Positions 1,728 to 36,893 of a stretch of 49,554 nucleotides of DNA are shown here, one piece after another. A model generated the notes under the pieces. It had not been told where the DNA came from, made no database searches, and saw nothing but the letters and a program-made list of their open reading frames with translations. Positions within the stretch are counted from its first letter, which is position 1. Every line of letters begins with the position of its first letter. The position numbers and the translations under genes were made by a program. Source of the stretch: a virus (Duplodnaviria; Heunggongvirae; Uroviricota; Caudoviricetes); IMG/VR virus record IMGVR_UViG_3300028048_000043; one strand, given 5' to 3'.

Positions 1728-2357
1728 TTATGCTTCTACAGGTATGCCGTGTTCTTTAATGTGTCTTTGATAACTTATCTTTTCCTGAATCTTAAAATCG
1801 ACATCTTTCCAGGAAATTGGAGTGTAATTGTTGTTATCGACACCAACATCATATTGTGTCGGATAGCAATAACTAAGTCTTCCTTCATCAGAAGTTTTTG
1901 TGTATTTCCCAGAATGCACATGACCATACAGATTGTATGCATACGAATCTTTGTACATATCTGGATCCGCGTGTGCAAAGCAAAGAAACGGAAAATGGTT
2001 CAGGTATACCGTTCTTCCGTCAACCTGTATCCTCGCCTGATATAAAACGTCCTCGAATAATCCCCACAAGCTCTTTTGCAGATTCCTGTCATCGTGGTTT
2101 CCCCTTATAAGAACTATATGACCGTTAAGTTGTTTCGCTACACGTTCTACAACCTGAGGATTACCGAAACAAAAATCTCCAAGATGGAAAACCGTATCGT
2201 TTATTCCAACGACAGAATTCCAGTTTTCTATAAGCGCTTTATCGTGTTCTTCGATATTTGCAAACGGTCTGTTGCAAAACCGAAGTATGTTTTCATGATT
2301 AAAATGGGTATCGCTCGTGAAAAACAACCCGTCTCCAGTAAATTTCGTTATCATCAA
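1728..2357 (-). CDS. calcineurin-like metallophosphoesterase
   Basis: Motifs SDTHF, HLGDF, RGNHD, NHFP, YGHVH, DVGVD. Confidence 0.9.
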   Translation of the reverse strand: MMITKFTGDGLFFTSDTHFNHENILRFCNRPFANIEEHDKALIENWNSVVGINDTVFHLGDFCFGNPQVVERVAKQLNGHIVLIRGNHDDRNLQKSLWGLFEDVLYQARIQVDGRTVYLNHFPFLCFAHADPDMYKDSYAYNLYGHVHSGKYTKTSDEGRLSYCYPTQYDVGVDNNNYTPISWKDVDFKIQEKISYQRHIKEHGIPVEA

Positions 2358-9027: not shown

Positions 9028-9198
9028 CTGTTTTTTCACAGACACACCAATGCGCTTCGAATCACAATGATATGCCACCAAGTTTATAGTATTATAGACG
9101 ACCTAACGTCCACGCCATATTGCTTGCAAGACTTACTGGCATTTATGTTGAGCCCAGCGACAAACTTGGAAACGCAATTTGAGGACTCTAACATATTG

Positions 9199-9271
9199 TG
9201 CATCCGACAGGACTCGAACCCGCACTCGCATATTTTAGGGACATGCTGCCCAACCATCGGGCTACGGATGC
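9199..9271 (-). tRNA. Arg-like tRNA body with ambiguous anticodon (CTA in a 7-nt loop, or CCT in a 9-nt loop)
   Basis: GCATCCG/CGGATGC-A; GCATGT-CCCTAAA-ATATGC. Confidence 0.7.
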
Positions 9272-10412: not shown

Positions 10413-10589
10413 TAGGTACAGTCCTTTATCGGTATGGACTGTAAGTACCGTCCGGCTTTTACGGAGCCTGCTCTGTGCATAATGCAAGCACTAAACTCCA
10501 TCTCTACGTAAGGTCTCGGCAGGTATTACGTTCACCATTCCGTGTCCTGGCGTCCCAGGTGTCCTCGACCGAAATGAAGCACATGTTTG

Positions 10590-10760
10590 AGCGGGATAGG
10601 AGAATCGAACTCCCATATTCAGCTTGGGACTACTAAGTGGATTTGAACCACTGACCTCCGGTGTTTACCGGCACTCTCACTTCTGAGCTATAGTAGCCTG
10701 ATTCGTTTCGGAGAATCGTTCCGTATGAAGGCTGACATTCTACCGTTGAACTAATCCCGC
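10590..10760 (-). tRNA. tRNA-Gly(TCC) split by a 100-nt insert (10627-10726) containing a nested tRNA-like module
   Basis: Exons join to TCAGC-CT-TCC-AA-GCTGA; inner module GGCTACTA..TAGTAGTC with D arm, CCGGT-AAAC-ACCGG arm and T arm. Confidence 0.88.
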
Positions 10761-10787
10761 TTTTTTAAATCATTTATATTCTTAATG

Positions 10788-10955
10788 TGGGAGGTACTGG
10801 ATTCGAACCAGTGACCCTCTGCTTGTGCCCGTAGATTACGCTTCGAACGTAAACCAAACGAACATCGTTTTGTTTTCTCCCGTTCTACAGATAATCCGTC
10901 ACAGTGGATCATTCTGTATAAGGCAGACGCTCTGAACCGACTGAGCTAACCTCCC
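10788..10955 (-). tRNA. tRNA-Val(TAC) split by a 93-nt insert (10827-10919) containing a nested tRNA-like module
   Basis: Exons join to TCTGC-CT-TAC-AA-GCAGA; inner stem TCTGTAGA/TCTACGGG and T arm TTACG-TTCGAAG-CGTAA. Confidence 0.88.
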
Positions 10956-11222
10956 AAAAACGCCCATTCATCTTTCGTGTCGTCACAGCGGTCTCCTGAG
11001 GTCTTTCAGGATGCTAAACCGGTACATACCCTATACGCTACTTCCGCGCCTATATTTAGAGTTAATGCGCTTACCTACGTACACACTCTCTGTACCTTTA
11101 AATGCGTGGTCTCAAACCGCTTCTCTAATTCGGCTCGATTTACAACAGATGTCGTGTGCACCGGACTCTCCGGGATAGAAGCCATCTGCTTCGCGCAATG
11201 GATAAGATGAACTACAAGACTG

Positions 11223-11330
11223 AGCCAGAATCTGGATTCGAACCAGAGCAGCGCCTAAATCGCTATCGCGGACGGCTGTCGTTCTCCGTAGTGGCGTTCT
11301 ACCAGCGTTTCACTTCGCGTCGTTCTGACT
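11223..11330 (-). ncRNA. tRNA-like element with expanded body and no recognisable anticodon
   Basis: AGTCAGAA/TTCTGGCT stem stacked on T arm TCTGG-TTCGAAT-CCAGA. Confidence 0.65.
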
Positions 11331-11333
11331 TTT

Positions 11334-11424
11334 TGGCGGAGGGTGAGGGATTCGAACCCCCGGTGCGCTCAACACGCACAACGGTTTTCAAGACCGCCGC
11401 TATCGACCACTCAGCCAACCCTCC
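11334..11424 (-). tRNA. tRNA-Ser(TGA)
   Basis: GCGGT-CT-TGA-AA-ACCGT, long variable arm, CCA encoded. Confidence 0.96.
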
Positions 11425-11432
11425 GAATTTTG

Positions 11433-11536
11433 CTGGTTGTAGAGGACTCGAACCTCTGACTCCCTGCGTAAGGCAGGGCGCTTTGCCTACTCACACAACG
11501 GAACGCTCTTCCGCCGTTGCTTATCGCTAACAACCA
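11433..11536 (-). ncRNA. tRNA-like element with D-loop hairpin insert and 5-nt anticodon loop
   Basis: TGGTTGT/ACAACCA-G; CCCTGC-CTTAC-GCAGGG; T arm AGAGG-TTCGAGT-CCTCT; directly after promoter 11546-11553. Confidence 0.7.
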
Positions 11537-11571
11537 ATCGTTTTGCAAATATACTGAATTTTTTGAAAAAT

Positions 11572-13248
11572 CTACCATCTTTTGACGGCAGCTGAAGACG
11601 CACGCCTTCCTTCTTTTTCAAAGGAATTTTTGCTTCCAACAAACGATGCCGTTTTTCTTGATGAAGGAATCCACGCTCCGAAATATTCCAAACGATCACA
11701 AGTCAACTCACCTATATAAAGATCATTTTCATTGTTTCCAATATTTTTATTCTGAAGGGCGTTTCCCTGTGTAACTTTATCGTCTATTGATCTTTCAAAC
11801 ATCTTTTCAACTTTGCAATTTACAACAGAAATTCCTTTTCTCTGCTCTATCAATTTAAGATAGATATCATCGACGTTTACATATTTTTCAATCTCTTCAA
11901 GGTTCTTATCTGATATACCAAGTATGTCAGGTGGATAAAGAATTCCACCAACTCCGGTTGGAAATAAATTCATCGACGGATAATGAATCCTACCTGTATA
12001 TTCTTTTCTCCATGTAGAATAACTTGACACTCCACCTTTTCCGTTAGATGTCATAAGGTGAACTCGTCTTGCTATAACGCAATCAGGAAATCTCAGATAA
12101 GAAAACATTAGTTCCTTCAACATATCTTTTGGATAAACCTTGTCGTCGTCCACAGTAACCACCGCATAATTCCTAAATTCTTTCATAGCGTAAAAATATT
12201 TCTTATGCGGTTTTATCTTTTCATCGGTTTTTCTTATCTCGATTGCTCCTGTTTCAGAAAGTTCCTTGAGATAATCTGTCAGATATTCTTCATCCCATGA
12301 ATCTATATACAATAGAATTTTATCTGGCAGAACGCTTTGTTCGACTATACTTTTTACAGCTTGATCTGTGGATCCGGATTTCAACCTCTCTTTATATGTT
12401 GTCATCGAAACAACAACTCTATTTTGACGCTCGATCAGTTTTTCTTTAAATTCTGGGAACGCCTCAAAAAGTTTTTTGTTTATTTCTGTATAATTGTTTA
12501 CCTTGTGGAGAGCTGTCGGCATATTTTGTGATCCTTCTATAAATCTTTCCGAAGAATCATATATCAAACTGCTCTGTCTGAATGTCCTATCTTCAATAAT
12601 ATTGAAACAGAACTGCCAGCTTTCATCTGATGTTGGAGACAACTCCATCATAAGGTCCTCGTCGAAAAATCTCTTATCTGTAAACGTTCCGGCCGGATAT
12701 AATGTTCCTCCGTCTCCATTTGCCGGTTTTGCAAAATTCAAAACAATTCCTGTCTTTCCGTTCATTGTCGTTCCACACTTTCTACAATATGATTTGAATC
12801 TTCTAAGCTCAAGATTGTCACTGAAAAACCAAGAAAAATTACCGCCAATTATATCATTCGGATATTTTTTGTGGTCATCAATAAACATCTTTAACCAACC
12901 TTTTGGTTTTATCGAATCATCGTCCATAATAAGAATAGGATTGTCTGGGTACTTTTTAAGTGTAGGAATAAGCTTTTTATGAGATTTTATGTTCCTTTCG
13001 TACCAGATAATCTCTATTTCTCCGGAAGTTATAAGCTTCCTTATTCCAGACGTCAAATCAATTTCTCTTTTTGGAAATTCTTCCGAACACAAAACGAGAA
13101 CTATGTAATATAGAGATCTTTCGACACCCTGATTGAGCAGAGACTCTATAACAGAATGTACGGTTCCTATCCTTGCCGGATAAGACGTAAACGAAACTAT
13201 GAGTGTGTTTTTCTCAATCATATATTTTACAGTTCTTTTTTCATCCAA
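11572..13248 (-). CDS. tandem two-domain glycosyltransferase (GT2-like)
   Basis: Two repeats: IVSFTSYPARI..KKLIP..ILIMDDD and VVSMTTYKERL..KKYFY..VTVDDD..PTGVGGILYPP; true start may be MIEKN. Confidence 0.82.
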   Translation of the reverse strand: MDEKRTVKYMIEKNTLIVSFTSYPARIGTVHSVIESLLNQGVERSLYYIVLVLCSEEFPKREIDLTSGIRKLITSGEIEIIWYERNIKSHKKLIPTLKKYPDNPILIMDDDSIKPKGWLKMFIDDHKKYPNDIIGGNFSWFFSDNLELRRFKSYCRKCGTTMNGKTGIVLNFAKPANGDGGTLYPAGTFTDKRFFDEDLMMELSPTSDESWQFCFNIIEDRTFRQSSLIYDSSERFIEGSQNMPTALHKVNNYTEINKKLFEAFPEFKEKLIERQNRVVVSMTTYKERLKSGSTDQAVKSIVEQSVLPDKILLYIDSWDEEYLTDYLKELSETGAIEIRKTDEKIKPHKKYFYAMKEFRNYAVVTVDDDKVYPKDMLKELMFSYLRFPDCVIARRVHLMTSNGKGGVSSYSTWRKEYTGRIHYPSMNLFPTGVGGILYPPDILGISDKNLEEIEKYVNVDDIYLKLIEQRKGISVVNCKVEKMFERSIDDKVTQGNALQNKNIGNNENDLYIGELTCDRLEYFGAWIPSSRKTASFVGSKNSFEKEGRRASSAAVKRW

Positions 13249-13571
13249 ACATAAGATATGTCTTCGGAATCAGCAACGAAATCTCTATAACCGTGTCGTT
13301 CGTACCATTCATGAACGAAAGACGTTTTCAGAACCTTTAATATTATCGTCTTGAATTCCATTTTCTTAGCAATGTCAGTCGCCATTTCAAGAATGATATT
13401 TCCCAATCCAGTTCTTCTGTATTTCTCATCTACGAATACGTTAGAAAGATATACAGTGTCCGGATCGTCGTCATATGTATAAAGGGCGAATCTGAAAGAT
13501 TTCTTTAAATCAGAAATATACCAACATTTTCCGAAGTCAGTTGCTTCTTCTCTTATATCGAAGTTATTCAT
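13227..13571 (-). CDS. GNAT acetyltransferase
   Basis: LSNVFVDEKYRRTGLG motif A, WYERHGY; start trimmed to MNNFD to avoid tRNA overlap. Confidence 0.85.
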   Translation of the reverse strand: MNNFDIREEATDFGKCWYISDLKKSFRFALYTYDDDPDTVYLSNVFVDEKYRRTGLGNIILEMATDIAKKMEFKTIILKVLKTSFVHEWYERHGYRDFVADSEDISYVWMKKEL

Positions 13572-13616
13572 TCTTATGATGATGAAGATTTGATTTCTGT
13601 ATTTATCCGCGTAAAG

Positions 13617-13689
13617 TGCTCCCTCGGGGGCTCGAACCCCGGACCCCAACATTAAGAATGTCGTGCTCTACCAACTGAGCTAAGAGAGC
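13617..13689 (-). tRNA. tRNA-Lys(CTT)
   Basis: CGACA-TT-CTT-AA-TGTTG. Confidence 0.95.
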
Positions 13690-13695
13690 AAAGTG

Positions 13696-13769
13696 TACCC
13701 TCGGAGGGACTCAAACCCCCAGTCACCACATCCGTAGTGTGGCATGTTATTCAATTACACCACGAGGGC
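13696..13769 (-). tRNA. tRNA-Arg(ACG)
   Basis: CCACA-CT-ACG-GA-TGTGG. Confidence 0.93.
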
Positions 13770-13778
13770 ATTTACTTG

Positions 13779-13964
13779 TGCGAGCGAGAAGGGGTTGAAC
13801 CTTCACTTAGACTATCCGGTCGCGACTCGGAATCGTCCGTGCGTTTATTCTAGTGTCAAACCTTCGGCAGATCGCGACTCTGTTTATTAACCTCACTATC
13901 TGACACACATATTCGACGCTTCCCCCTTTGGAGTGGGGCGACTTTACCGTTTGTCCACCCTCGC
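13779..13964 (-). ncRNA. 186-nt tRNA-like RNA: Leu-type D arm, CCA anticodon, ~110-nt variable-region insert
   Basis: GCGAGGG-TG-GAC-AAACGGTAAA-GTC-G-CCCCA-CTCCAAA-GGGGG...GAAGG-TTCAACC-CCTTC-TCGCTCGC-A. Confidence 0.72.
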
Positions 13965-13990
13965 ATTCATTTGATTATCAATTAGTTGAG

Positions 13991-14064
<74 letters not shown>

Positions 14065-14387
14065 ATGAAACGGATGTCAGACATATTCGTCACCGTCATT
14101 GGATATTACGTCTCTGACCGACGTTCAGGTGTACACCGAACACCACCTGACATTCTGGTAACAATTGAAACCTTTGTCGACTTAAAGGTCCTCGGCTCAG
14201 AACAACAATAATGCAATCACATACTAACGCGGCGCCACGTTAGCAGATTTATCAACGTCCGACCTTACTCTATAGCAACTCCCTAACAATGCTGGCACGG
14301 GATGTCATACACTATAGAGATACATTCCAGTTCGTCGTCATCCGCCTCAGAATAGGACTTGAACCTACATATAACGTCGTGATTTTG

Positions 14388-14470
14388 TGCGGCTGGGGAG
14401 ACTCGAACTCCCACCCCCTTTCGGGGACCAGTCCCTCAAACTGGCGCGTCTACCATTCCGCCACAGCCGC
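14388..14470 (-). tRNA. tRNA-Leu(GAG)
   Basis: CCAGT-TT-GAG-GG-ACTGG, long variable arm. Confidence 0.95.
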
Positions 14471-14704
14471 ATTTGCACAGATTTTGGATTCGCTTCTGTA
14501 CTGTGCTCAGGCTAGTTTGTCTACCTTTTAATCGGAACGAGCATCGGTCTTATTGACTGCTTCCACCACCACAATACGGTGCAATCCGCAATTGTTGGAT
14601 GGTTTCCGTTTTTGCCGAATCGTGCGAACCTGACCGTTCCTGCCGGGCGTTGGGTCTCGCCGCAGGAAGTCCCGCTCCTAGTGACCAACTTCACGGGACA
14701 GGGG

Positions 14705-14777
14705 TTGCGAAGGGCAGGATTCGAACCTGCGACCTCTGGCTTATGGGACCAGCGAGCTACCACTGCTCCACCCCGCA
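14705..14777 (-). tRNA. tRNA-Met(CAT), initiator-like D arm, C33
   Basis: TGCGGGGTGGAGCAG..AGCTCG; CTGGT-CC-CAT-AA-GCCAG. Confidence 0.82.
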
Positions 14778-14784
14778 ATATTTT

Positions 14785-14932
14785 GACACCAATGGGGAGA
14801 GTCGAACTCCCATTCCGCTCGTTACGTACCGAGGGCAACCTTTACGAAGAATGACCTTCCTCTTCTACTCCCGGAAATTTGATCAGTCTTTCCGGTCCGC
14901 GCTGGTATACCAGATTCCCAGTCACATGGTGT
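14785..14932 (-). ncRNA. tRNA-like RNA with three internal hairpins in place of anticodon/variable arms
   Basis: ACACCATG/CATTGGTGT stem, T arm GGGAG-TTCGACT-CTCCC, hairpins CCGGAAA/TTTCCGG, GAAGA/TCTTC, CTCG/CGAG. Confidence 0.65.
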
Positions 14933-14936
14933 TCAT

Positions 14937-15039
14937 TGGTAGCGGGTCGGGAAGTCGAATCCCGTATCTAGAGGTTATGAGCCTCTAATGATTTCTAGAC
15001 TCTTGTTTAAGAAGTCCCTATCCGTTTCACTCCCCCGCA
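14937..15039 (-). tRNA. tRNA-Met(CAT) with ~27-nt hairpin insert in the D loop
   Basis: AGAGG-CT-CAT-AA-CCTCT, 1:72 mismatch, CCA encoded, insert GACTTCTT-AAAC-AAGAGTC. Confidence 0.8.
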
Positions 15040-15050
15040 ATTTTCAGATT

Positions 15051-15138
15051 TGGCACGGGTGGTAGGATTCGAACCCACGTGAGACTTACGTCTGCTGGTT
15101 TTGGAGACCAGTGCCATCAACCGCTAGGCGACACCCGT
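15051..15138 (-). tRNA. tRNA-Trp(CCA) with long variable arm
   Basis: CTGGT-CT-CCA-AA-ACCAG, G73, CCA encoded, variable hairpin AGAC-GTAA-GTCT. Confidence 0.9.
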
Positions 15139-15320
15139 GTATAAGTTTGGGATATTTATTCTGGGCTTTTCGTCGTGTTAGACGTGTGCAGAAACCGGTA
15201 CCGCTGCCCAGCTCATTGCAAGCCTGTTCTCAAATGCAGGTCTCACTACATTATTTTGTCACTTGCCGTTTCTCCCTTCCAGCACAGATCAACGAGACTA
15301 TGTTTCTGTACTGAAATTTA

Positions 15321-15392
15321 GACATCTATGATTGATTCGAACAATTCCTCCTGCTTTCGCGGCAGGCGTGCTACCTTTACACCACAAGATGT
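15321..15392 (-). pseudogene. tRNA-like element, loop CG-CGA-AA, short variable loop, bulged acceptor
   Basis: D arm GTGT-AAAGGTA-GCAC, CCTGC/GCAGG, T loop TTCGAAT; lacks U33. Confidence 0.65.
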
Positions 15393-15525
15393 GTCCTCGC
15401 GTCTGTGATACTGACAATTTTTATTTATCAAAAAACACAAGGGTCGTTTGAGCACGACCACGTCAGCCATCATTGGTATCACATCCGACCTGGTACTGTT
15501 TTGAGCTCTCATAAGTCCAGGAATT

Positions 15526-15600
15526 TGGTAGCGGGTAGGAGAATCGAACTCCTCTTCCAAGAATGAAAATCTTGTGTACTAACCACTATACGAACCCGCC
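15526..15600 (-). tRNA. tRNA-Glu(TTC)
   Basis: CAAGA-TT-TTC-AT-TCTTG, CCA encoded. Confidence 0.94.
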
Positions 15601-15739
15601 ATGCTGCCTTTTTACTACTCCCAGGAAGGCTAACCTGTCCGTTATACGTTGCACGAATAACAACTTAAAATCGCGAAAACAACGCGAATCAGAGGTTGTT
15701 ATGATCTACGTTCCGGCGTACGTTCCGGCAATTCTTTGA

Positions 15740-16204
15740 TTACTTTGCCTGATCTTCAGCGGCATCAACTGGAACATTTGTGATGCGACGGTCAATCTCG
15801 AATGTAAGACCTGTGAGGGTTTCCTTCACATATCCCTTAATGTAAATGTCGTAATGACCGGTAAAAGCATCAACGGCGACTGCTCCGTCAACCCACTCGT
15901 TGACACGTGCGGCTGCATCAGCAACCCTTGCATCGTTTGAAGCGAGAGCCTCATCGAGAACGTATGACTGTACTCCTCTGAGGTTGACAGCTTCTGTCAC
16001 ATTTGTCCAGCCGAAATCGAAGTTGGCTGCACCGTCCACACCGAAATGCCCACCAGTAAACTCAACGGTAACGGCTGCGTCGGTGTTTCCTGTTACAGCA
16101 AGATCATACTCGATTCCGAACTTTGCATCATTGTTGCACGAAGTGCAAGATGCCGCAAACAACATTGTGATCGCAGCAAGAATAATTGTAAAAAACTTAC
16201 GCAT
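15740..16204 (-). CDS. lipoprotein
   Basis: Signal peptide with lipobox LFAASC; codon usage looks highly expressed. Confidence 0.8.
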   Translation of the reverse strand: MRKFFTIILAAITMLFAASCTSCNNDAKFGIEYDLAVTGNTDAAVTVEFTGGHFGVDGAANFDFGWTNVTEAVNLRGVQSYVLDEALASNDARVADAAARVNEWVDGAVAVDAFTGHYDIYIKGYVKETLTGLTFEIDRRITNVPVDAAEDQAK

Positions 16205-16234
16205 AAAATTTAATTTATTTTGTGAAAAAAGTTG

Positions 16235-16438
16235 CGGAGTTGGCAGGATTCAAACCTGCGATGACCATCAGATGAAACATCGAGCCAGGCGTTTTCCAAA
16301 GGCAACCACACCTGAGTCTTCTGCCATTTTCAACATCGATGTATTTTCAACTATGGTGTTGCGCTCTGAGCGCATCTTACAATTAACGAGGGCTTGATGT
16401 AATCTCCCCACGACCTTCGATCTCTCAGCCACAACTCC
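16235..16438 (-). ncRNA. 204-nt Ser-like tRNA shell around a large insert
   Basis: GGAGTTG/CAACTCC-G, Ser-type start TGGCTGAG..GAAGG, T arm GCAGG-TTTGAAT-CCTGC. Confidence 0.68.
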
Positions 16439-16549
16439 AGTATGCTTTTGCGGATTTGCATTAACCGTATTGGTAGTGAGGCTTTATCGCTTCTCACCAA
16501 GGCTGCGTCTGGCTTTACAGACGGATTCTTCACGTGAATTAAAAATTTA

Positions 16550-17290
16550 GATCCGGCATCTTCATAGCGGTGACTCGATGGGCGGCTCGTCAGCTCTCTT
16601 CCGCACCGATGCTCACTATTTATACTGTCAGTTTCTCAGTATCCTGACCAAACTGTATTGTTAGAGGTATTTTTAACGTGCTCCCTCCTTTCCCACGTAT
16701 TTGCGGCAGTGACTCCGCATCAACCGTTTACTTCACTGCTCACGGTCAACATAGCAGGGCTTTCGCGTGAGTAACAACCTCACATGGCTTTACATTACTG
16801 CAAAGACGGCACCGCTGCCGTAGCCACATCCATAAGACATTCGCTACTAAAGGTTCGTCGCGTGGACTCTAGAGATTAGGTCGTTTAACGGACTAGTTGT
16901 CGGTACGACCACCTTATCGCAACTACTCATTGTTACTCCAGATTCGCTTATTCCTTATGGACATATACAGACAACATCGGCACCGCGCTGAATTTACGTT
17001 TTAATCTTGAATGTGGTCTTAAGCAGAGGCATCTGTTCGTCCCGTTTAATGGGTAAGCTTGCCGTTTAACCACTCCGCCGCTCTCGGTTCTTATTGCCTA
17101 ACGAATTTGTCTGATGTTTTTACGGATCAGCATTAACCGTATTCACGCCGAACCAGCAAGTCTGGCCGACTACTTTTATTGTTTAACGTGGAGTAGACAC
17201 CCTGTCAGAACAGACTCGCGATAACGTCCGCTCACTCATAACTCCATTACTGAGGTGTTTTCCGTTTTAGGCAGAACACCAAACCTAATA
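16550..17290 (-). ncRNA. candidate large structured ncRNA (~740 nt, unidentified)
   Basis: No ORF of 60 aa or more, GC higher than genes, repeated CGTTAAA pseudoknot units; strand inferred from the array. Confidence 0.55.
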
Positions 17291-17576
17291 CACAACCATC
17301 ACCAGCAAAAGTTTTATTGCAGTTGAACCTTGCAAGAGCATTGTCATAGTATCCCATATGTGAACTCGATCATTCGACCTGAACACGGCGACAACCGATT
17401 TTTTACACAACCTACTATAGTTGCAACGCCTCGCGGCGATTCGTCCATAACTATGACAACACAATCCAACCACATCTGTTTTAAACTACGTACTCCAATG
17501 CGAGCCCGCCTCCGATTTTCACGGCGATCTATGATGCTGTTAAGTCATGAGGAGTTATCCTCTGCGACAAATGATT

Positions 17577-17699
17577 TTGATGGTACCGGACTTGAACCGA
17601 CAAGTTTGGAACAATCTACTGCTCTTCCACACCGTTTTTCTCCATGAGTAGAAATATTGGATAAGAACAGTCGTGTTTACCTGTTTCCACCAACCATCA
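17577..17699 (-). ncRNA. Leu-like tRNA shell with extended anticodon arm/insert
   Basis: TGATGGT/ACCATCA-A; GTG-GAAACAGGTAAA-CAC; ACTGTTCTT..36 nt..AAGAGCAGT; T arm GTCGG-TTCAAGT-CCGGT. Confidence 0.7.
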
Positions 17700-17978
17700 A
17701 ACAGATTGTGTTATTGTTATAAAAAATAAATCAAGCGTTTTCGACCTGTATATTCACATACCATTTCAGGTAAACTACCGCTTACGAGTCTGACTCTCTG
17801 CTCGTGCGCGGGGTGGTTGTCGATCCACCGTTTCTTGATTTGATTAAAGAGCATCACTCCGTTTCGAACCAGAATGAATTGTTACCTGGCGTGCTTGTCT
17901 GTCCTATACACCATTGTCCTGTAACGAGCGATGAACCCCCGTTAGCCTCACGGGTCCTCACCTCCAGGTATCTCTTAT

Positions 17979-18178
17979 TGGTAGCGACCTACGACTTCCA
18001 CGTAAATACCCCTCTATGCATGGGGCGTGATAACTCCAAACCTGTTTCTTACTCCTTATCGAGATTGTGCAATCTGTCAAAGTTTCATACTAAAGGACTC
18101 AGTCAAACCATCACAGGCGCTAGCATTTCCTGCTACATTGATTGAACTTTTTACAGGCTCATATTTCACTAAATCGCA
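17979..18178 (-). ncRNA. 200-nt tRNA-like RNA (CAT anticodon, giant D-loop insert, CCA end), copy 1
   Basis: TGCGATT/GGTCGCT-ACCA; GTGA..TCAC D stem; CCCCA-TG-CAT-AG-AGGGG; homologous to 22395-22592. Confidence 0.8.
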
Positions 18179-18210
18179 AATTTCTAACTGATTTATTATC
18201 AGTATTTTTG

Positions 18211-18287
18211 CGGTGCGTATGGGAATCGAACCCATCTGAATCTCCTGAGTGACAGTCAGGCGTCCACACCATGCAGACCCACACACC
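18211..18287 (-). tRNA. tRNA-Asp(GTC)
   Basis: CCTGA-CT-GTC-AC-TCAGG, G73. Confidence 0.92.
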
Positions 18288-19084
18288 TATTCGATTTTAA
18301 TTGTCCCGTTTTCTATTAATTTGTGATGATTAGGGCACACCCACATAAGATTGTTTTTATCATTTATTTCTGAAATTTTTGAATGTGGATCAAAATCTTT
18401 TATTGCTTTTATGTGATGAACCTCTAATATTGAATCAAGCTCATGGTTATGACAAATTTCGCAAACTTTTTCTCTTGACTCGTCTTCCAATAAAATCTTT
18501 TTTGCCATTTTTCTTATCTCTGTACATCTAGATGCCAGATATGGTAATCTTTTGTCATACCCAATGTAATACCCAAGCTCTCTATTTAACATTTTATATG
18601 ATGATCTCTCTTTACTGCAATTTTTACAAAACACAGAAGAAGCAGACTTTCTTCCACCGCACTCTGGGCAAATTTCAGACGTTGATTCTTTTTTTCGTTT
18701 TGGATACTGTCTATTATTATATTTTGCTGAACAGCTTCTACTGCAAAAGAATTCAGAGTTTTCTTTTATTTTCTTATTATATGTGTATTTGCTTATTTCA
18801 AATTCTTTCCCACACTCTTTACACAGAACCTTTACAACATCTTTTTCATGGTCTAATCTTGAACACCGCTGTGAACAATATAACGGAATAACTTTTTTGT
18901 TTTTTGACAAATATCTTTTTGATTTATAAAACGTTGCTCCACAACGCTTACATGTAAACTCAAAAACATCACCACTTTTCGCATTATTGTAATTTTCTTC
19001 AGTAAATACCATACTATAACATTTTGTTTTATTATTTATTTCGAAAAACATAAAATAAAACAAAATTTCGAAAAAAAATTGCAC
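18287..19084 (-). CDS. HNH endonuclease with zinc-ribbon repeats
   Basis: Several CxxC..CSxxC units; CEIC..LEVHHIK..INDKNNLMWVCPNHH; true start probably an internal Met. Confidence 0.88.
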   Translation of the reverse strand: MQFFFEILFYFMFFEINNKTKCYSMVFTEENYNNAKSGDVFEFTCKRCGATFYKSKRYLSKNKKVIPLYCSQRCSRLDHEKDVVKVLCKECGKEFEISKYTYNKKIKENSEFFCSRSCSAKYNNRQYPKRKKESTSEICPECGGRKSASSVFCKNCSKERSSYKMLNRELGYYIGYDKRLPYLASRCTEIRKMAKKILLEDESREKVCEICHNHELDSILEVHHIKAIKDFDPHSKISEINDKNNLMWVCPNHHKLIENGTIKIE

Positions 19085-19170
19085 CGCACAGCCATTATTG
19101 TTTAATTCTAACTTTATAAAAAAGTTATCGTTGTTCCTGACAATAAGTATTCCTTCTTAGGCTACGTTTG

Positions 19171-19277
19171 CTAAGGATGATGGATTCGAACCACCGACCC
19201 ATGCTGGATCAAAGTAGGACTAACGTTTGAAAAACGGATTCCTCACACCAGCTGCTCTTCCACTGAGCTAATCCTTA
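19171..19277 (-). tRNA. Gln(TTG)-like tRNA with 33-nt insert at the 5' side of the anticodon loop, copy 1
   Basis: TAAGGAT/ATCCTTA-G; GCTGG-[33 nt]-CT-TTG-AT-CCAGC. Confidence 0.65.
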
Positions 19278-19313
19278 ATGTGAATCAAACTCAACTTTCT
19301 TAGGCTACGTTTG

Positions 19314-19420
19314 CTAAGGATGATGGATTCGAACCACCGACCCATGCTGGATCAAAGTAGGACTAACGTTTGAAAAACGGATTCCTCACACCAGCTGCTC
19401 TTCCACTGAGCTAATCCTTA
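19314..19420 (-). tRNA. Gln(TTG)-like tRNA with 33-nt insert, copy 2
   Basis: Identical to copy 1. Confidence 0.65.
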
Positions 19421-19575
19421 ATGTGAATCAAACTCAACTTTTTCTCATATCACGCAGTTTCACAGCTGTACGAAGCGCTGCGCCGAGGGATGAGTCTTAT
19501 AACCTTTAGGAAACAACCCGAGGACGATCGTCGTTTGCGCAGTGGTTGTAAGTGATATTGTTTGATTCAGTATTG

Positions 19576-19781
19576 CTGCCCGGGAGAATTTCGAAATCTC
19601 GACCCCCTGATTAAGACGCTATGGTTGGACTCGAACCAACATATTCAAGAAAACTTGATGCAAGTTCTTAGCTTACACCGGATTATAGTCCTACGATCTA
19701 CCTATGAACCACATAGCGTTCGATTCGTCACAGTGAATCAATCTGTGTCAGTCAGGTGCTCTGCCTCTGAGCTACCGGGCA
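19576..19781 (-). tRNA. tRNA-Asn(GTT) split by a 134-nt insert (19615-19748) containing a nested tRNA-like module
   Basis: Exons join to CCTGA-CT-GTT-AA-TCAGG; U1:A72, G73; inner ACGCTATG/CATAGCGT, T arm GTTGG-TTCGAGT-CCAAC. A shifted junction would give CTT (Lys). Confidence 0.85.
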
Positions 19782-20413
19782 ATATGCAAGGCTGATTGGT
19801 TGGCTCAGCCTTGTGAAGCCTCTGTGCATCTCCTACCATTGGTAGAAGCCATCAGGCAAGATTGAATTATCGTGTTTGGATCAACCCTGCGAAAACCTTT
19901 AGGTGATGAAATCACCAAACCGTACTCTCCACGGATTAGACCAAGTTCGCTTTCTTTTAGTGTGTGTAGGAATACGCCTACGTGCGCCAACCTGATGAAA
20001 CTTACACCTCAACTTCGTCCGCATGGTTGCCAACCATATTATCCCTGATTACATTTTTGGAAAACCTTCTAGAAAAATTATCCAAGAATCAAGTTTTCTA
20101 CCGCGTCGATTAGAATTGAAACCGTATAATTGGGTGGCGATCCTCAAAGCTGAAAATCAATTTAACCGATCTTGCGTTGTGGACATTGTACCTATAGCCA
20201 GAGTCCAACCAGCTTATTCCCCGCCTACCGGGGTACTCTTATGTGTCTTCACCGCTTATCGTCCGCTCCATACGGTTAACTAGTATTACATCGGTACGAC
20301 GACAGTTCGGCGTTCAGTTTGCTGCGACCGAGACCTATAGGCGAAACTCTCTAAGAATTTGCAACTTACAAAGAGAGCCAATTCAGTTGTATGTGTTCGA
20401 CTGAATTTTGTGA

Positions 20414-20543
20414 CCGTATAAAGAAACTTATGGGTTTCAATTTCTTGCTTCAACCTATCGCTACTTTTTAGCATAACATTTCTGTTTGGTTCATCCATAG
20501 TTGGATAGTCCACAAGCGTAAATTCGGAAGTACGGCTACCTAT
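20414..20543 (-). ncRNA. orphan IS607 TnpB omega-RNA scaffold/right end
   Basis: Highly similar to tnpB 3' end and right end at 40766-40905; no tnpB and no left end. Confidence 0.8.
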
Positions 20544-20554
20544 TTTTTAATTAG

Positions 20555-20703
20555 TGACCCCGACGGGGCTCGAACCCGTGACCCCAACATTGTGCTCTAA
20601 TAAAGTTACGATCTTTCTAAGTGACCAAATCTTTAGAGCAGAGATTTTAATCAGTTTACTCTGATAGAAAAGTGTTGTGCTCTACCAACTGAGCTACGAG
20701 GTC
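20555..20703 (-). tRNA. tRNA-Lys(TTT) split by a 76-nt insert (20592-20667) containing a minimal tRNA-like module
   Basis: Exons join to CAACA-CT-TTT-AA-TGTTG; inner TGCTCTAA/TTAGAGCA plus T-like arm AAAG-ATCGTAA-CTTT. Confidence 0.85.
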
Positions 20704-22711: not shown

Positions 22712-22833
22712 TCGGAGCGGCAGGACTCGAACCTCAACCTCTCGGCTTGTCCGACTGGATTTACAGCGAGTTTTACCGGTGCCTCATCAAACCAGCCTTT
22801 GCGAGTGCTCTACCATAACTGAGCTACACCCCG
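22712..22833 (-). ncRNA. Pro-like tRNA shell with ~50-nt structured insert replacing the anticodon loop
   Basis: CGGGGTG/CGCTCCG-A, normal D arm, insert stem GGCTGG/CCAGTC. Confidence 0.7.
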
Positions 22834-31559: not shown

Positions 31560-32218
31560 TATTTCTTGTTTTTCTTATCAAGAATTTTATCACAGATTCC
31601 ATACTCAACCGCCTCCTTTGCTGACATCCAATAATCTCGATCCATATCCTTGAAAACCTTATCGTAGTCTTGACCGGTTTTTTCTGATATGATTTGAACA
31701 AGCTCTGCGCGAGCCTTCTCAATTTCCTTAGCCTCTATCAAAATATCAGAAGCCTGACCGCGAGCGCCACCAAGAGGTTGATGAATTAAGACTCTCGAAT
31801 GAGGCAATATAGAACGTTCACCTTTTTCTCCTGAGCAAAAAAGAACAGCAGCCATGCTTGCAGCCATTCCTGTGCATATAGTTGCAACCTTTGGTTCGAT
31901 TATCTGCATCGTGTCATAGATTGCCATGCCGGAAGTTATAATTCCTCCAGGACTGTTTATATACAAAGAGATTGGTTCATCGTTCAAAGAAGACAGCCAT
32001 AACAACTGCGCCTGAATAACGTTCGCAACATCATCGTTGATTTCCGAACCAAGAAATATTATTCGTTCCATCTGCAATCGACTGAACACGTCCATAGCAG
32101 CAACATTGAGTTTTCTTTCCTCGATGATTGTTGGATTTATATACGTCGATTTCAAATATTGTTCTGTTGTCAAAGAAGATATCCCTCTTGACAATGCATA
32201 TCTTTCAAAATCATTCAT
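31559..32218 (-). CDS. clpP: ATP-dependent Clp protease proteolytic subunit
   Basis: DVFSRL..RIIFLG, YINSPGG, GMAASMA (Ser), IHQP (His), DRDYWMSA. Confidence 0.97.
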   Translation of the reverse strand: MNDFERYALSRGISSLTTEQYLKSTYINPTIIEERKLNVAAMDVFSRLQMERIIFLGSEINDDVANVIQAQLLWLSSLNDEPISLYINSPGGIITSGMAIYDTMQIIEPKVATICTGMAASMAAVLFCSGEKGERSILPHSRVLIHQPLGGARGQASDILIEAKEIEKARAELVQIISEKTGQDYDKVFKDMDRDYWMSAKEAVEYGICDKILDKKNKK

Positions 32219-32700
32219 TTTAACTTAAGTATTTCTTTTGCTTTTTCTATATCTTCCTCTGTAAGTGCGGTTTCGCGGTTAGTTTGTATAAAATGATTTA
32301 CCTGACCAAGAAGCATATCCGCATCATCATCAAATATAACATATTCAACATCGTGCGGTGTGTCTCCCCATTTCGTGCTCGATCCAAAATTCTCAACTAG
32401 ATATTCATCAATCTCTGATCCACGGCAAATCCAGTCCTGCCAATAATGGTTTATGGTTCCTATTATTGGAATTTCACATCCTAGTTCTTTCAGCGGTTCT
32501 ATTGCCGTTGTTCCCCATGATGATGAAATTAGAATTTCGACACCGTCTCCTTTCAGTCTATTAAGCAGCTTTACTTTATCAGGATCCATATACCCGTGAC
32601 CTGGCATCTCGTCTCTACGAACACCGTCATGATACGAGTTGCAGAGAAAATCAAGAGATGCCATCACACCATCTATGTCAAGAAAAATTATCCTTTTCAT
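32215..32700 (-). CDS. HAD-family phosphatase of the Swiss-Army-knife RNA-repair-like type
   Basis: IFLDIDGV, ISSSW, RGSEI, YVIFDD. Confidence 0.82.
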   Translation of the reverse strand: MKRIIFLDIDGVMASLDFLCNSYHDGVRRDEMPGHGYMDPDKVKLLNRLKGDGVEILISSSWGTTAIEPLKELGCEIPIIGTINHYWQDWICRGSEIDEYLVENFGSSTKWGDTPHDVEYVIFDDDADMLLGQVNHFIQTNRETALTEEDIEKAKEILKLK

Positions 32701-35366: not shown

Positions 35367-35997
35367 AACTCATGTAAGCGTCAAATTGTTTCTTATTATA
35401 TTCTCTTATGTAGTTTATTGTTTTTTTGAACTCAAATGGTGTACATCCGGCATAAACGGCACCATGTTTCTTTTCCGTTGCGTTAAAATCGTATATCCAA
35501 GCTACAGCTCCCGCATTGATGTCATCCACACAAAAATGAGAATTGTATCCATCATTGTAGTCTTTCGGAATAAACGTGTTAAAACTTCTCGTTGAAAACG
35601 GTACGATAAGAATCTCATATTCCGCAACCTCTTTCGCTACTTTTATACCGTTTTCCTCCTCAAACGAAACTATAAAATCATCGTACGGTCTTCCAGCGTT
35701 GCATTCGTACGGAGTATCGTTCCAGTCATCACCTGTCTGTTCGTCCAAAGAGCGTGGAGTGAAAAAAGCAAGGTATTCTCTTTCTCCCTTCAAGTACTCA
35801 GGGTTTGGAAGATCCTTAAATCTGAATTTGTCATACAACCAAGGGTTGTTTTTGAATTCTTCATAAGGTATCTTATCGTATTCTTCCTTGAGTTCTGGAG
35901 GAAGAGACCACACTGTTTCCGGTATGGTCTCAACGTAGCAAAGCTTGAACTTGTCAAGCTTGTGTGTTAGTTTCGAGAATTTGATTTTTGTATACAT
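35356..35997 (-). CDS. conserved phage hypothetical protein
   Basis: GDDWNDTPYECNAGRPY, INAGAVAW. Confidence 0.75.
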   Translation of the reverse strand: MYTKIKFSKLTHKLDKFKLCYVETIPETVWSLPPELKEEYDKIPYEEFKNNPWLYDKFRFKDLPNPEYLKGEREYLAFFTPRSLDEQTGDDWNDTPYECNAGRPYDDFIVSFEEENGIKVAKEVAEYEILIVPFSTRSFNTFIPKDYNDGYNSHFCVDDINAGAVAWIYDFNATEKKHGAVYAGCTPFEFKKTINYIREYNKKQFDAYMSYED

Positions 35998-36893
35998 TAG
36001 ACGTTCTCTACGTTTTCTTTGTACCAGGCGTCAAACTCTTTGTATTCGTTAACCCCGACCTTGTCGATTGCAGCCTGAAGGTCTCTATAATCACAGGTCT
36101 TTATTTTGACGATGATTCGCTTTCCGCGAGGATCTTTGATTGGAACAACAGGACGAGCGACAATACCCTCTTCAAGGAAATCCGGATTCGCAACGTTTGG
36201 AACGCGAGTCTTGAACCCTTCTTTCACCATCGCCTCCGCCTGAGGAATAGTCATTTGACCAAGATATGGAGCAACGTCAAGCCCAAGTTTTTCAGCATAT
36301 TCATTAAGCATATCGATTGGAATATACCAACCCTGCTGACAGATGTCGAAGATAGAGAAACGGTTGTTCTCCTTGTCATAGTTTCCACCGCACTGGATCT
36401 TCTTTCCGAAGAACTCACCGTAAATGTAAACAGGAGACTCTTCAAGTTCAATGGCATATACCCAGGGACGATCTGGTGTAATAACTTCACCATCAAGATT
36501 GCGATACATTGGCTGGTTCTTATCGTTTACTATAGGAACGAACTTGGCAGACTCAGGAGGAAACATCTCGGCGAGAATTGGCTTGATTCGCTCGATAACC
36601 TGTTCAAGGAAAGCCTTCTGCCCAGTACCGACAATATCCGCCTTATCTGTCTTTCCGCCGGGGAAGCACTCTCCGGTAGAAGGATAATACACAATTTTCG
36701 ACGAAGTTCCATCTATTTTTGAAAAACAATCAAATTTCAACAATTTTATGTAATCCATAAAATCATCAGAATACTTATCAATAATGATTTTATTCTGAAA
36801 AATCTTCCATTCTGATTTTGGAAGTGAAACCCCATCTAAACGATATCTTCCATGTAGAGTGTTAATTTTTGTGTAAGTTTGAGTCTTTTTCAT
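35997..36893 (-). CDS. ATP-dependent RNA ligase (Rnl2-like)
   Basis: Nucleotidyltransferase motifs I KIDGT, III YGEFFG, IIIa FSIFDI, IV EGIVAR, V IVKIK. Confidence 0.88.
   Translation of the reverse strand: MKKTQTYTKINTLHGRYRLDGVSLPKSEWKIFQNKIIIDKYSDDFMDYIKLLKFDCFSKIDGTSSKIVYYPSTGECFPGGKTDKADIVGTGQKAFLEQVIERIKPILAEMFPPESAKFVPIVNDKNQPMYRNLDGEVITPDRPWVYAIELEESPVYIYGEFFGKKIQCGGNYDKENNRFSIFDICQQGWYIPIDMLNEYAEKLGLDVAPYLGQMTIPQAEAMVKEGFKTRVPNVANPDFLEEGIVARPVVPIKDPRGKRIIVKIKTCDYRDLQAAIDKVGVNEYKEFDAWYKENVENV

Follow-up and report, generated by a model that had tools for sequence, protein, structure and literature searches.

A predicted pseudoknot leader, supported by covariation, at the fixed 5′ end of Lak-type tRNA inserts in a phage tRNA array

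The 'enigmatic' tRNA introns of Lak megaphages (Devoto et al. 2019) are inserts in the anticodon loops of phage tRNAs that hold a tRNA-like fold (PMC6784885). The available passages of that paper describe no leader, pseudoknot, end rule or mechanism for these introns, and report no removal in vivo. No splicing route has been proposed since 2019, the usual endonuclease of tRNA splicing being absent from bacteria and the inserts being too short to be group I introns. The Lak introns are the closest known elements to the inserts that interrupt tRNA genes in the IMG/VR virus record IMGVR_UViG_3300028048_000043, a stretch of 49,554 nucleotides (referred to as the window) that is part of a large phage genome carrying a tRNA array (26 genes called by ARAGORN, and a tmRNA). 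In three of these inserts a leader of 28 nt, predicted to fold as a small H-type pseudoknot, lies exactly at the fixed 5′ end; it is a real element, supported by covariation in homologs, and it would mark the site of the 5′ cut.

The inserts of the window are of the Lak type: they lie in anticodon loops, their removal in silico restores normal tRNAs of 72–76 nt, and a tRNA-like fold is found inside. When the four Lak intron types (Table S6 of PMC6784885) were inspected by eye, they showed a hairpin as leader, a tail rich in A, an acceptor/T helix of 13 bp and, ahead of exon 2, a C; the one-base offset published for the Lak Thr intron agrees with the end rule found here. The two groups differ in the second helix of the leader, which has a full 5–6 bp in the three window leaders and about one covarying pair in the Lak form, and in the insertion sites, which here include 33/34, 34/35 and 35/36. 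The literature searched, a search that did not reach most subscription papers and bioRxiv supplements, contained no account of leader, end rule or mechanism, nor did the available passages of 10.1101/356790, PMC12880540, PMC8346664, 10.1101/2021.08.26.457843, PMC13282480 and PMC12619734. PMC13037316 states again that a further tRNA could be encoded by introns of this sort.

Anatomy of the split tRNA genes

Four tRNA genes of the array, all on the minus strand, are interrupted, and in each the insert runs in the same order: a leader, a tRNA-like module (an 8-bp acceptor helix on a T arm), one C, and then exon 2. In tRNA-Val(TAC), exon 1 (10920..10955) extends to position 34 and is followed by the leader (10892..10919; predicted helices S1, leader bases 4–6/16–18, and S2, 9–14/23–28), a module with an 8-bp acceptor, a T arm and a degenerate middle (10827..10891, terminal C at 10827), and exon 2 (10788..10826); the whole insert is 93 nt long and occupies site 34/35 (10919-10827). 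tRNA-Gly(TCC) is split at site 35/36 by 100 nt (10726-10627). Its exon 1 (10727..10760, to position 35) precedes a predicted pseudoknot leader with a G-C at pair 5-17 (10699..10726), a cloverleaf module with an abnormal anticodon loop (10627..10698, terminal C at 10627) and exon 2 (10590..10626). The 134-nt insert of tRNA-Asn(GTT), at site 34/35 (19748-19615), comprises a predicted pseudoknot leader (19721..19748) and a remainder (19615..19720) made up of one spacer base and a module with a long variable region, its terminal C being at 19615; exon 1 (19749..19781) extends to position 34, and exon 2 (19576..19614) carries the discriminator G73. Finally, tRNA-Lys(TTT) (20555..20703) has a 76-nt insert at 36/37 (20667-20592), with a leader of hairpin and A-rich tail (20667-20641), a module and a terminal C.

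An Rfam search over the inserts gave tRNA matches only, inside the Gly and Asn inserts; an acceptor and a T arm are present in all four. ARAGORN called no uninterrupted tRNA-Val or tRNA-Asn in the window, which is part of the genome. Standard annotation tools miss these genes or assign the wrong amino acid to them. For the Asn gene, the boundary defined by the leader is the only one that gives Asn in silico, one-base shifts converting the product to Lys or Ile. G73 is the Asn-type discriminator, and all eight Asn(GTT) hosts among the homologs described below carry it. It may be noted that the Lak 'tRNA-Tyr(GTA)' (L215, and L021, by eye apparently the B-Lak 'Tyr' intron) reads as tRNA-Asn(GTT) with site 35/36 when the end rule is applied; this reading comes with G73 and a short variable loop. 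In a separate case, a tRNA with the anticodon arm (TTC) is uninterrupted at 15526-15600 of the window, and the same arm in the phage G006 (L392:8364) has a hairpin-leader insert at 34/35.

The three 28-mers of Val, Asn and Gly had been pointed out in a reading of the window's letters (the sequence-only reading), and they were recovered letter for letter at the leader positions given above. Each begins at the first base of an insert that splits a tRNA anticodon. When the window was scanned with their consensus, allowing up to three mismatches, three matches were obtained against 0.00 expected (100 shuffles); as the consensus was built from the same three copies, the result means that the window holds no further copies and no chance look-alikes. 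A pseudoknot descriptor free of sequence was unselective, with 28 matches in the window and 8–30 in 10 shuffles. Since the bare shape is common in shuffles, the weight rests on the shared sequence and position.

Leader covariation and fixed insert ends

Thirteen leaders of 28 nt aligned without gaps. On this alignment 94% of the cells of S1 and S2 were paired, and five of the nine pairs were compensatory. None of 500 shuffles, which ignore the relatedness of the leaders so that their counts are not probabilities, reached the cell counts, and controls in which the helices were slid gave 18–39%; the number of compensatory pairs alone was matched by 106 of the 500. To avoid circularity, the analysis was repeated on 11 leaders from other phages that had been found without the leader pattern (leader-blind). 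Here 92.9% of the cells were paired, with five of the nine pairs compensatory (23 cells); the cell counts were again reached by no shuffle out of 500, the pair count was reached by 237, and the slid controls gave 20–47%. In both alignments the compensatory pairs comprised one of the three in S1 and four of the six in S2. Six leader-blind leaders with other loop lengths (L003, L004, L050, L188, L204 and L237) were left out of the set of 11, and these also show two crossing helices (L237 by eye). Hence both helices of the H-type order covary in homologs, the observation on which the sequence-only reading had staked that order.

Other details of the proposed fold were upheld in part. Stem 1 had been drawn with 5 bp; its conserved core is only 3 bp (4–6/16–18), and the longer stem was rejected because the outer pairs are without support in the alignment of 13 leaders, pair 3-19 being formed in seven of them and pair 2-20 being compatible in all 13 without real covariation. 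Similarly, the CGGA/TCCG pairing suggested for Gly holds at 5-17, a G-C within the S1 core, but position 7-15 is no conserved pair. On steric grounds an S1 of 3 bp can plausibly be combined with a loop 3 of 4 nt, whereas 5 bp with 2 nt would be doubtful. ViennaRNA, which treats one helix at a time, gave about -4 to -5 kcal/mol for S2 alone. S1 and S2 may be formed at once. Only 8–9 of the 28 leader bases are invariant and loop 1 is free; the few conserved positions can be read as structural.

The Lys leader had been taken as akin to the other three despite its different sequence, and it does belong to the same family, in the form of a hairpin with an A-rich tail. Among hairpin-type leaders, a loop purine and a tail pyrimidine covaried in 15 of 15 matched cases (10 G-C, 5 A-U). 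As leaders of the Lys type share S1 and keep one covarying loop–tail pair, we read them as a reduced form of the same fold. Their pattern matched at least 122 viral loci (28 of 64 collection parts scanned), nine of which have a tRNA-like module behind, all in anticodon loops; the remaining matches looked like chance. In GTDB the same pattern gave 11 loci, none in a tRNA, a result for one pattern only that makes no claim of absence from bacteria.

Homologs were sought in several ways. Strict leader patterns found no match in the viral contig collection. BLAST against GenBank phages returned only short tRNA pieces for the Val and Gly region and one 31-nt piece for L269, and no relatives of a neighbour protein were found. 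A leader pattern gave five metagenome and two viral loci, all seven in anticodon loops. The leader-blind pattern (two T loops about 30 nt apart) matched at least 125 and at least 123 viral loci in 13 and 30 of the 64 collection parts, respectively, most of them ordinary tRNAs with a hairpin behind, and further homologs were taken from longer stretches of carrier phages. From these sources, 61 distinct candidates for interrupted tRNAs were obtained, 40 of which fit the arrangement of leader (20–35 nt), 8-bp helix and T arm. Among the other 21 are inserts without a leader, adjacent tRNAs that were parsed falsely, and a few candidates that fell below thresholds.

The 40 inserts sit in tRNAs for 13 anticodons and at four loop positions, namely 33/34 (1), 34/35 (5), 35/36 (22) and 36/37 (12). 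Their 3′ ends were placed from the module only, and the 5′ ends were derived by restoring a 7-nt loop. With the ends set in this manner, the first base was A in 30, U in 5 and C in 5 inserts, the second was U in 38, and the third was A in all 40. All eight acceptor positions were paired in 40 of 40, and the last insert base was C in 40 of 40; the leader-blind patterns demand this C, and it is also present in 16 of 16 inserts that were first found without that demand. The final base of exon 1, on the other hand, is free (T20/A11/G6/C3). Free exon-end bases together with four sites indicate that the ends are set inside the insert. The leader thus stands at the 5′ junction in exact register, as had been proposed, when the junction is placed without using the leader. 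A second element, consisting of the tRNA-like module and one C, fixes the 3′ end, which goes beyond the leader-only account given before.

The module varies from about 50 to 135 nt, and only its acceptor and T arm are kept. The inserts of an Arg, a Val and a Thr gene are 77–79% alike, while the exons of the same genes are 58–64% alike (median insert-pair identity among 38 inserts, 52%). Judged from this sequence comparison, the difference points to movement between tRNA genes.

Leaderless tRNA-like inserts were also met. Seven (L002, L032, L035, L039, L098, L112 and L194) are a whole tRNA or a tRNA-like fold ending in CCA, lodged in the anticodon loops of Glu, Ile, Lys and Gly tRNAs; two more, L092 and L179, end one C past the discriminator. 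Leaderless inserts begin at tRNA position 1, where RNase P would cut, so the leader appears to be one of two solutions for the 5′ end.

A possible splicing route and its rivals

Our preferred reading, to which we give a probability of roughly 0.45 and which is accordingly tentative, is that the leader marks the 5′ cut of a protein-catalysed route of two protein cuts followed by ligation. The cut immediately ahead of the leader would be made by an endonuclease like RNase E/G or RNase Y, guided by the U two bases downstream and by the fold behind it. The cut at the other end would fall to an RNase Z-like nuclease of tRNA 3′ ends, past the C, the first base left unpaired by the 8-bp acceptor helix. 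The anticodon stem would hold the halves together, and a phage RNA ligase would seal them. Both cuts would leave ends joinable by an ATP-dependent ligase. An insert with both ends set from inside could sit anywhere in the loop and move between tRNA genes. In the available parts of the sources, a U at +2 is favoured by RNase E (PMC5222698), the cuts of RNase E and RNase Y are placed by stem-loops that lie downstream (10.1101/341578, PMC11321564), and the RNase Z cut falls one unpaired base beyond the acceptor stem (PMC3161902).

The window encodes candidates for the later steps, all on the minus strand. An ATP-dependent RNA ligase of the Rnl2-like kind (35997..36893; PF09414, E 1.9e-12; PHROG RNA ligase; ligase motifs by eye) is the candidate sealing enzyme, and a HAD phosphatase of the RNA-repair type (32215..32700; PF18143, E 1.5e-15) and a calcineurin-like phosphoesterase (1728..2357; common to the carriers G005, G007, G009 and G011) may heal the ends. 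PF09414 was above cut-off in 4 of 16 carrier records, and RtcB was detected in 1 of 15 (G008). The complete phage G005 at first appeared to be without an RNA ligase; this was overturned by a protein of 460–490 aa shared by G005, G007 and G011, which has a weak DRB0094-ligase match and ligase motifs by eye. An RNA ligase is therefore present in the window and in 3 of 3 near-complete carrier phages. RNase Z was above cut-off in none of the 22 virus records. RNase E/G, RtcB and a match to the RNase Z family were found in a Bacteroides control genome.

Several points weigh against this protein route. The RNase E motif is described as single-stranded RN|WUU (PMC5222698, in part); in the leader, A is invariant at +3, 5 of 40 inserts start with C at +1, and pairing with base 20 is possible for the U at +2. 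According to the passages available, a C directly after the discriminator inhibits RNase Z (PMC3161902), and the RNase Z rule leaves the always-C last base unexplained, as is the invariant A3. The CCA-ending leaderless inserts need another 3′ rule. Covariation speaks for each helix and not for S1 and S2 being present simultaneously. An AAA_33 kinase was found in 3 of 3 near-complete carriers, but also in 12 of 12 near-complete records, carriers or not; RNA-repair genes are equally common in phages without inserts, so their link to the inserts is unspecific. The Bacteroides genome is a control and may not be that of the host of this phage. Lastly, in the contigs of the two RNA runs that match the window (X1 and X2, see below) the Gly insert is unspliced, and no joint removes any insert.

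Both runs come from one bovine gut sample; of the words of 10500-20000, 0.91 and 0.58, respectively, occur in them, and long stretches of the window are matched exactly. Runs X3–X9 have small shares and were left aside when the habitat was considered. Such libraries may contain DNA, and mature tRNA is poorly captured in them. The coverage in X1 and X2 has gaps over the Val and Asn genes, which we take as proving nothing. In run X6, a 55-nt contig joins the Val exons exactly (a skip of 93). Its exon-2 part deviates at three of 27 bases, its shorter side covers 20 bases, and only 0.06 of the words of the stretch occur in X6; for these reasons the joint was rejected as splicing and is most likely the intron-less tRNA-Val of another organism. 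Loose ends of 8–9 bases at 10919 in X5 and X6 were read in the same way. A 260-nt contig of run X5 matches Val exon 1 and the leader (10894-10958, four differences) and then continues with other sequence, which suggests a relative with the same leader and a different module.

Indirect support for splicing is found in the genes themselves: the outer tRNA halves are canonical while the inner D and anticodon arms decay, and all 40 inserts leave a 7-nt loop with a sense anticodon after removal. Alleles with and without an insert occur in Lak populations (PMC6784885, in part). In this reading the inserts would be removed in vivo. These observations run counter to the idea that the inserts stay in, either as mobile tRNA-like passengers that silence the gene or within an unspliced precursor acting as a decoy or structural RNA, and so does the absence of duplication at the ends. 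That idea would fit the Gly sequence, seen only unspliced in the RNA contigs of this phage, and the fact that phage tRNAs are often dispensable; we consider it unlikely. An integration-site remnant was rejected because the ends show no duplicated tRNA half or target duplication, and the inner tRNA was rejected as the product because the inner arms decay and the outer halves do not.

With removal granted, one may ask what makes the cuts. A dedicated, unnamed phage enzyme could read pseudoknot and module together and make both cuts. With A3 and the terminal C both invariant, the insert would seem to be read specifically and not by host nucleases of a general kind, and most phage proteins are without annotation. 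We hold this to be unlikely. The splicing endonuclease EndA (PF01974) was detected in none of 22 virus records, many of them incomplete, and was detected in four archaeal controls; the carriers vary in size (177–361 kb) and in genetic code (G005 uses code 4). The proteins shared by G005, G007, G009 and G011 are of common phage families save one unnamed protein of 209 aa (G005, L389:12315-12941). Its nearest named Atlas cluster is AEP-like (PF24387, 51% of members); it looks AEP-like at most, and no tie to the inserts was found.

Catalysis by the RNA is the remaining possibility, and a rather improbable one: the leader, a pseudoknot of about 28 nt, either alone or stacked on the module with the invariant C, would cut at its own 5′ edge, or the whole insert would be a self-splicing mobile tRNA intron of under 100 nt. 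Such an intron, with the same slim prospects, would form a class distinct from group I, group II and bulge–helix–bulge (BHB) introns. The base ahead of the cut is free, which is also the case for ribozymes with a 5′-terminal cut site; there are healing enzymes that act on cyclic-phosphate ends, and RtcB occurs in G008 and the Bacteroides control. One pseudoknot leader (L280:350-394, minus strand, equal to L395:9588) lies outside an anticodon loop, directly behind the CCA of a degenerate tRNA-like sequence, which is the position of theta ribozymes; it stands directly before a tRNA-Asn gene with its own insert. This is the only non-intron context seen, a single case that hints at leader use outside introns. 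Against catalysis, no Rfam ribozyme match was obtained at any E-value tried and there is no HDV topology; few bases of the leader are invariant and the module length is variable, leaderless inserts exist, and H-type stacking would put the C at the far end from the 5′ junction.

Comparison with described classes gave similar results. Theta (HDV-like) ribozymes of gut phages are likewise small pseudoknotted RNAs whose 5′ edge abuts a tRNA processing site; as described in the available parts of PMC10879173, they lie behind the tRNA 3′ end and have a nested double pseudoknot with a catalytic C in J4/2, whereas the leader lies within the anticodon and consists of no more than two crossing helices. 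The sequence-only reading had kept the leader apart from this class, rightly: an HDV descriptor had no match in the four precursors, all four lack the P1-P2-P3-P4 nested double pseudoknot at the cut site, and there was no Rfam match. The hatchet ribozyme resembles the leader in being cut at its 5′ edge, in front of a short initial stem; it has four stems and 13 highly conserved bases in the consensus as described in the passages available (PMC4604424), the enclosed region here is a variable tRNA-like module, and no Rfam match appeared up to E 5–10. Archaeal and eukaryotic BHB (EndA/TSEN) introns are also short, non-catalytic anticodon-loop introns for which a nuclease and a ligase would be needed. 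Membership there was rejected, with the 4-bp central helix in 0 of 40, EndA in none of the 22 records and no insert at 37/38. Bacterial group I introns also interrupt the anticodon loop of bacterial-type tRNAs, and were rejected on the lack of an Rfam match, the length of the window inserts (76–134 nt), a terminal C and not G (40 of 40), and the free exon 1 end, where group I introns are preceded by U. For the likenesses to the preQ1 aptamer and ToxI, no match was obtained in Rfam.

With ends fixed inside the insert, by the pseudoknot on the 5′ side and by the 8-bp acceptor and C on the 3′ side, the cut sites to be tested and the mutants for doing so can be specified exactly. Should the protein route hold, it would be a further way of tRNA splicing, built from tRNA-end-processing nucleases and a repair ligase, and would provide a portable cassette of under 100 nt placeable in any anticodon loop.

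Further observations in the window

The long non-coding stretches 16250-18200 and 19800-20550 are covered by RNA-run contigs, also from related phages, and matched no Rfam family at gathering score. The segment 20530-20420 recurs near 23640-23510, and 18190-17990 resembles 22600-22400.

Some other tRNA-like genes of the window are unusual. At 19154-19439, a tRNA-Gln(TTG)-like gene whose anticodon arm is longer by about 34 bases occurs as a 143-nt tandem duplicate; as a contig of run X1 has one tRNA-Gln-like copy, the duplicate may be an assembly artefact. ARAGORN and Rfam both missed a tRNA-Trp(CCA)-like gene at 13775-13950, whose variable region is longer by about 100 bases. A tRNA-like gene at 22712-22833 (Rfam, 33.3 bits) has about 50 extra anticodon-arm bases, without a leader or an inner T arm. 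A tRNA of the amber-suppressor type (CTA) lies at 9198-9271, although for the reading frames of the window code 11 is about as good a fit as code 15.

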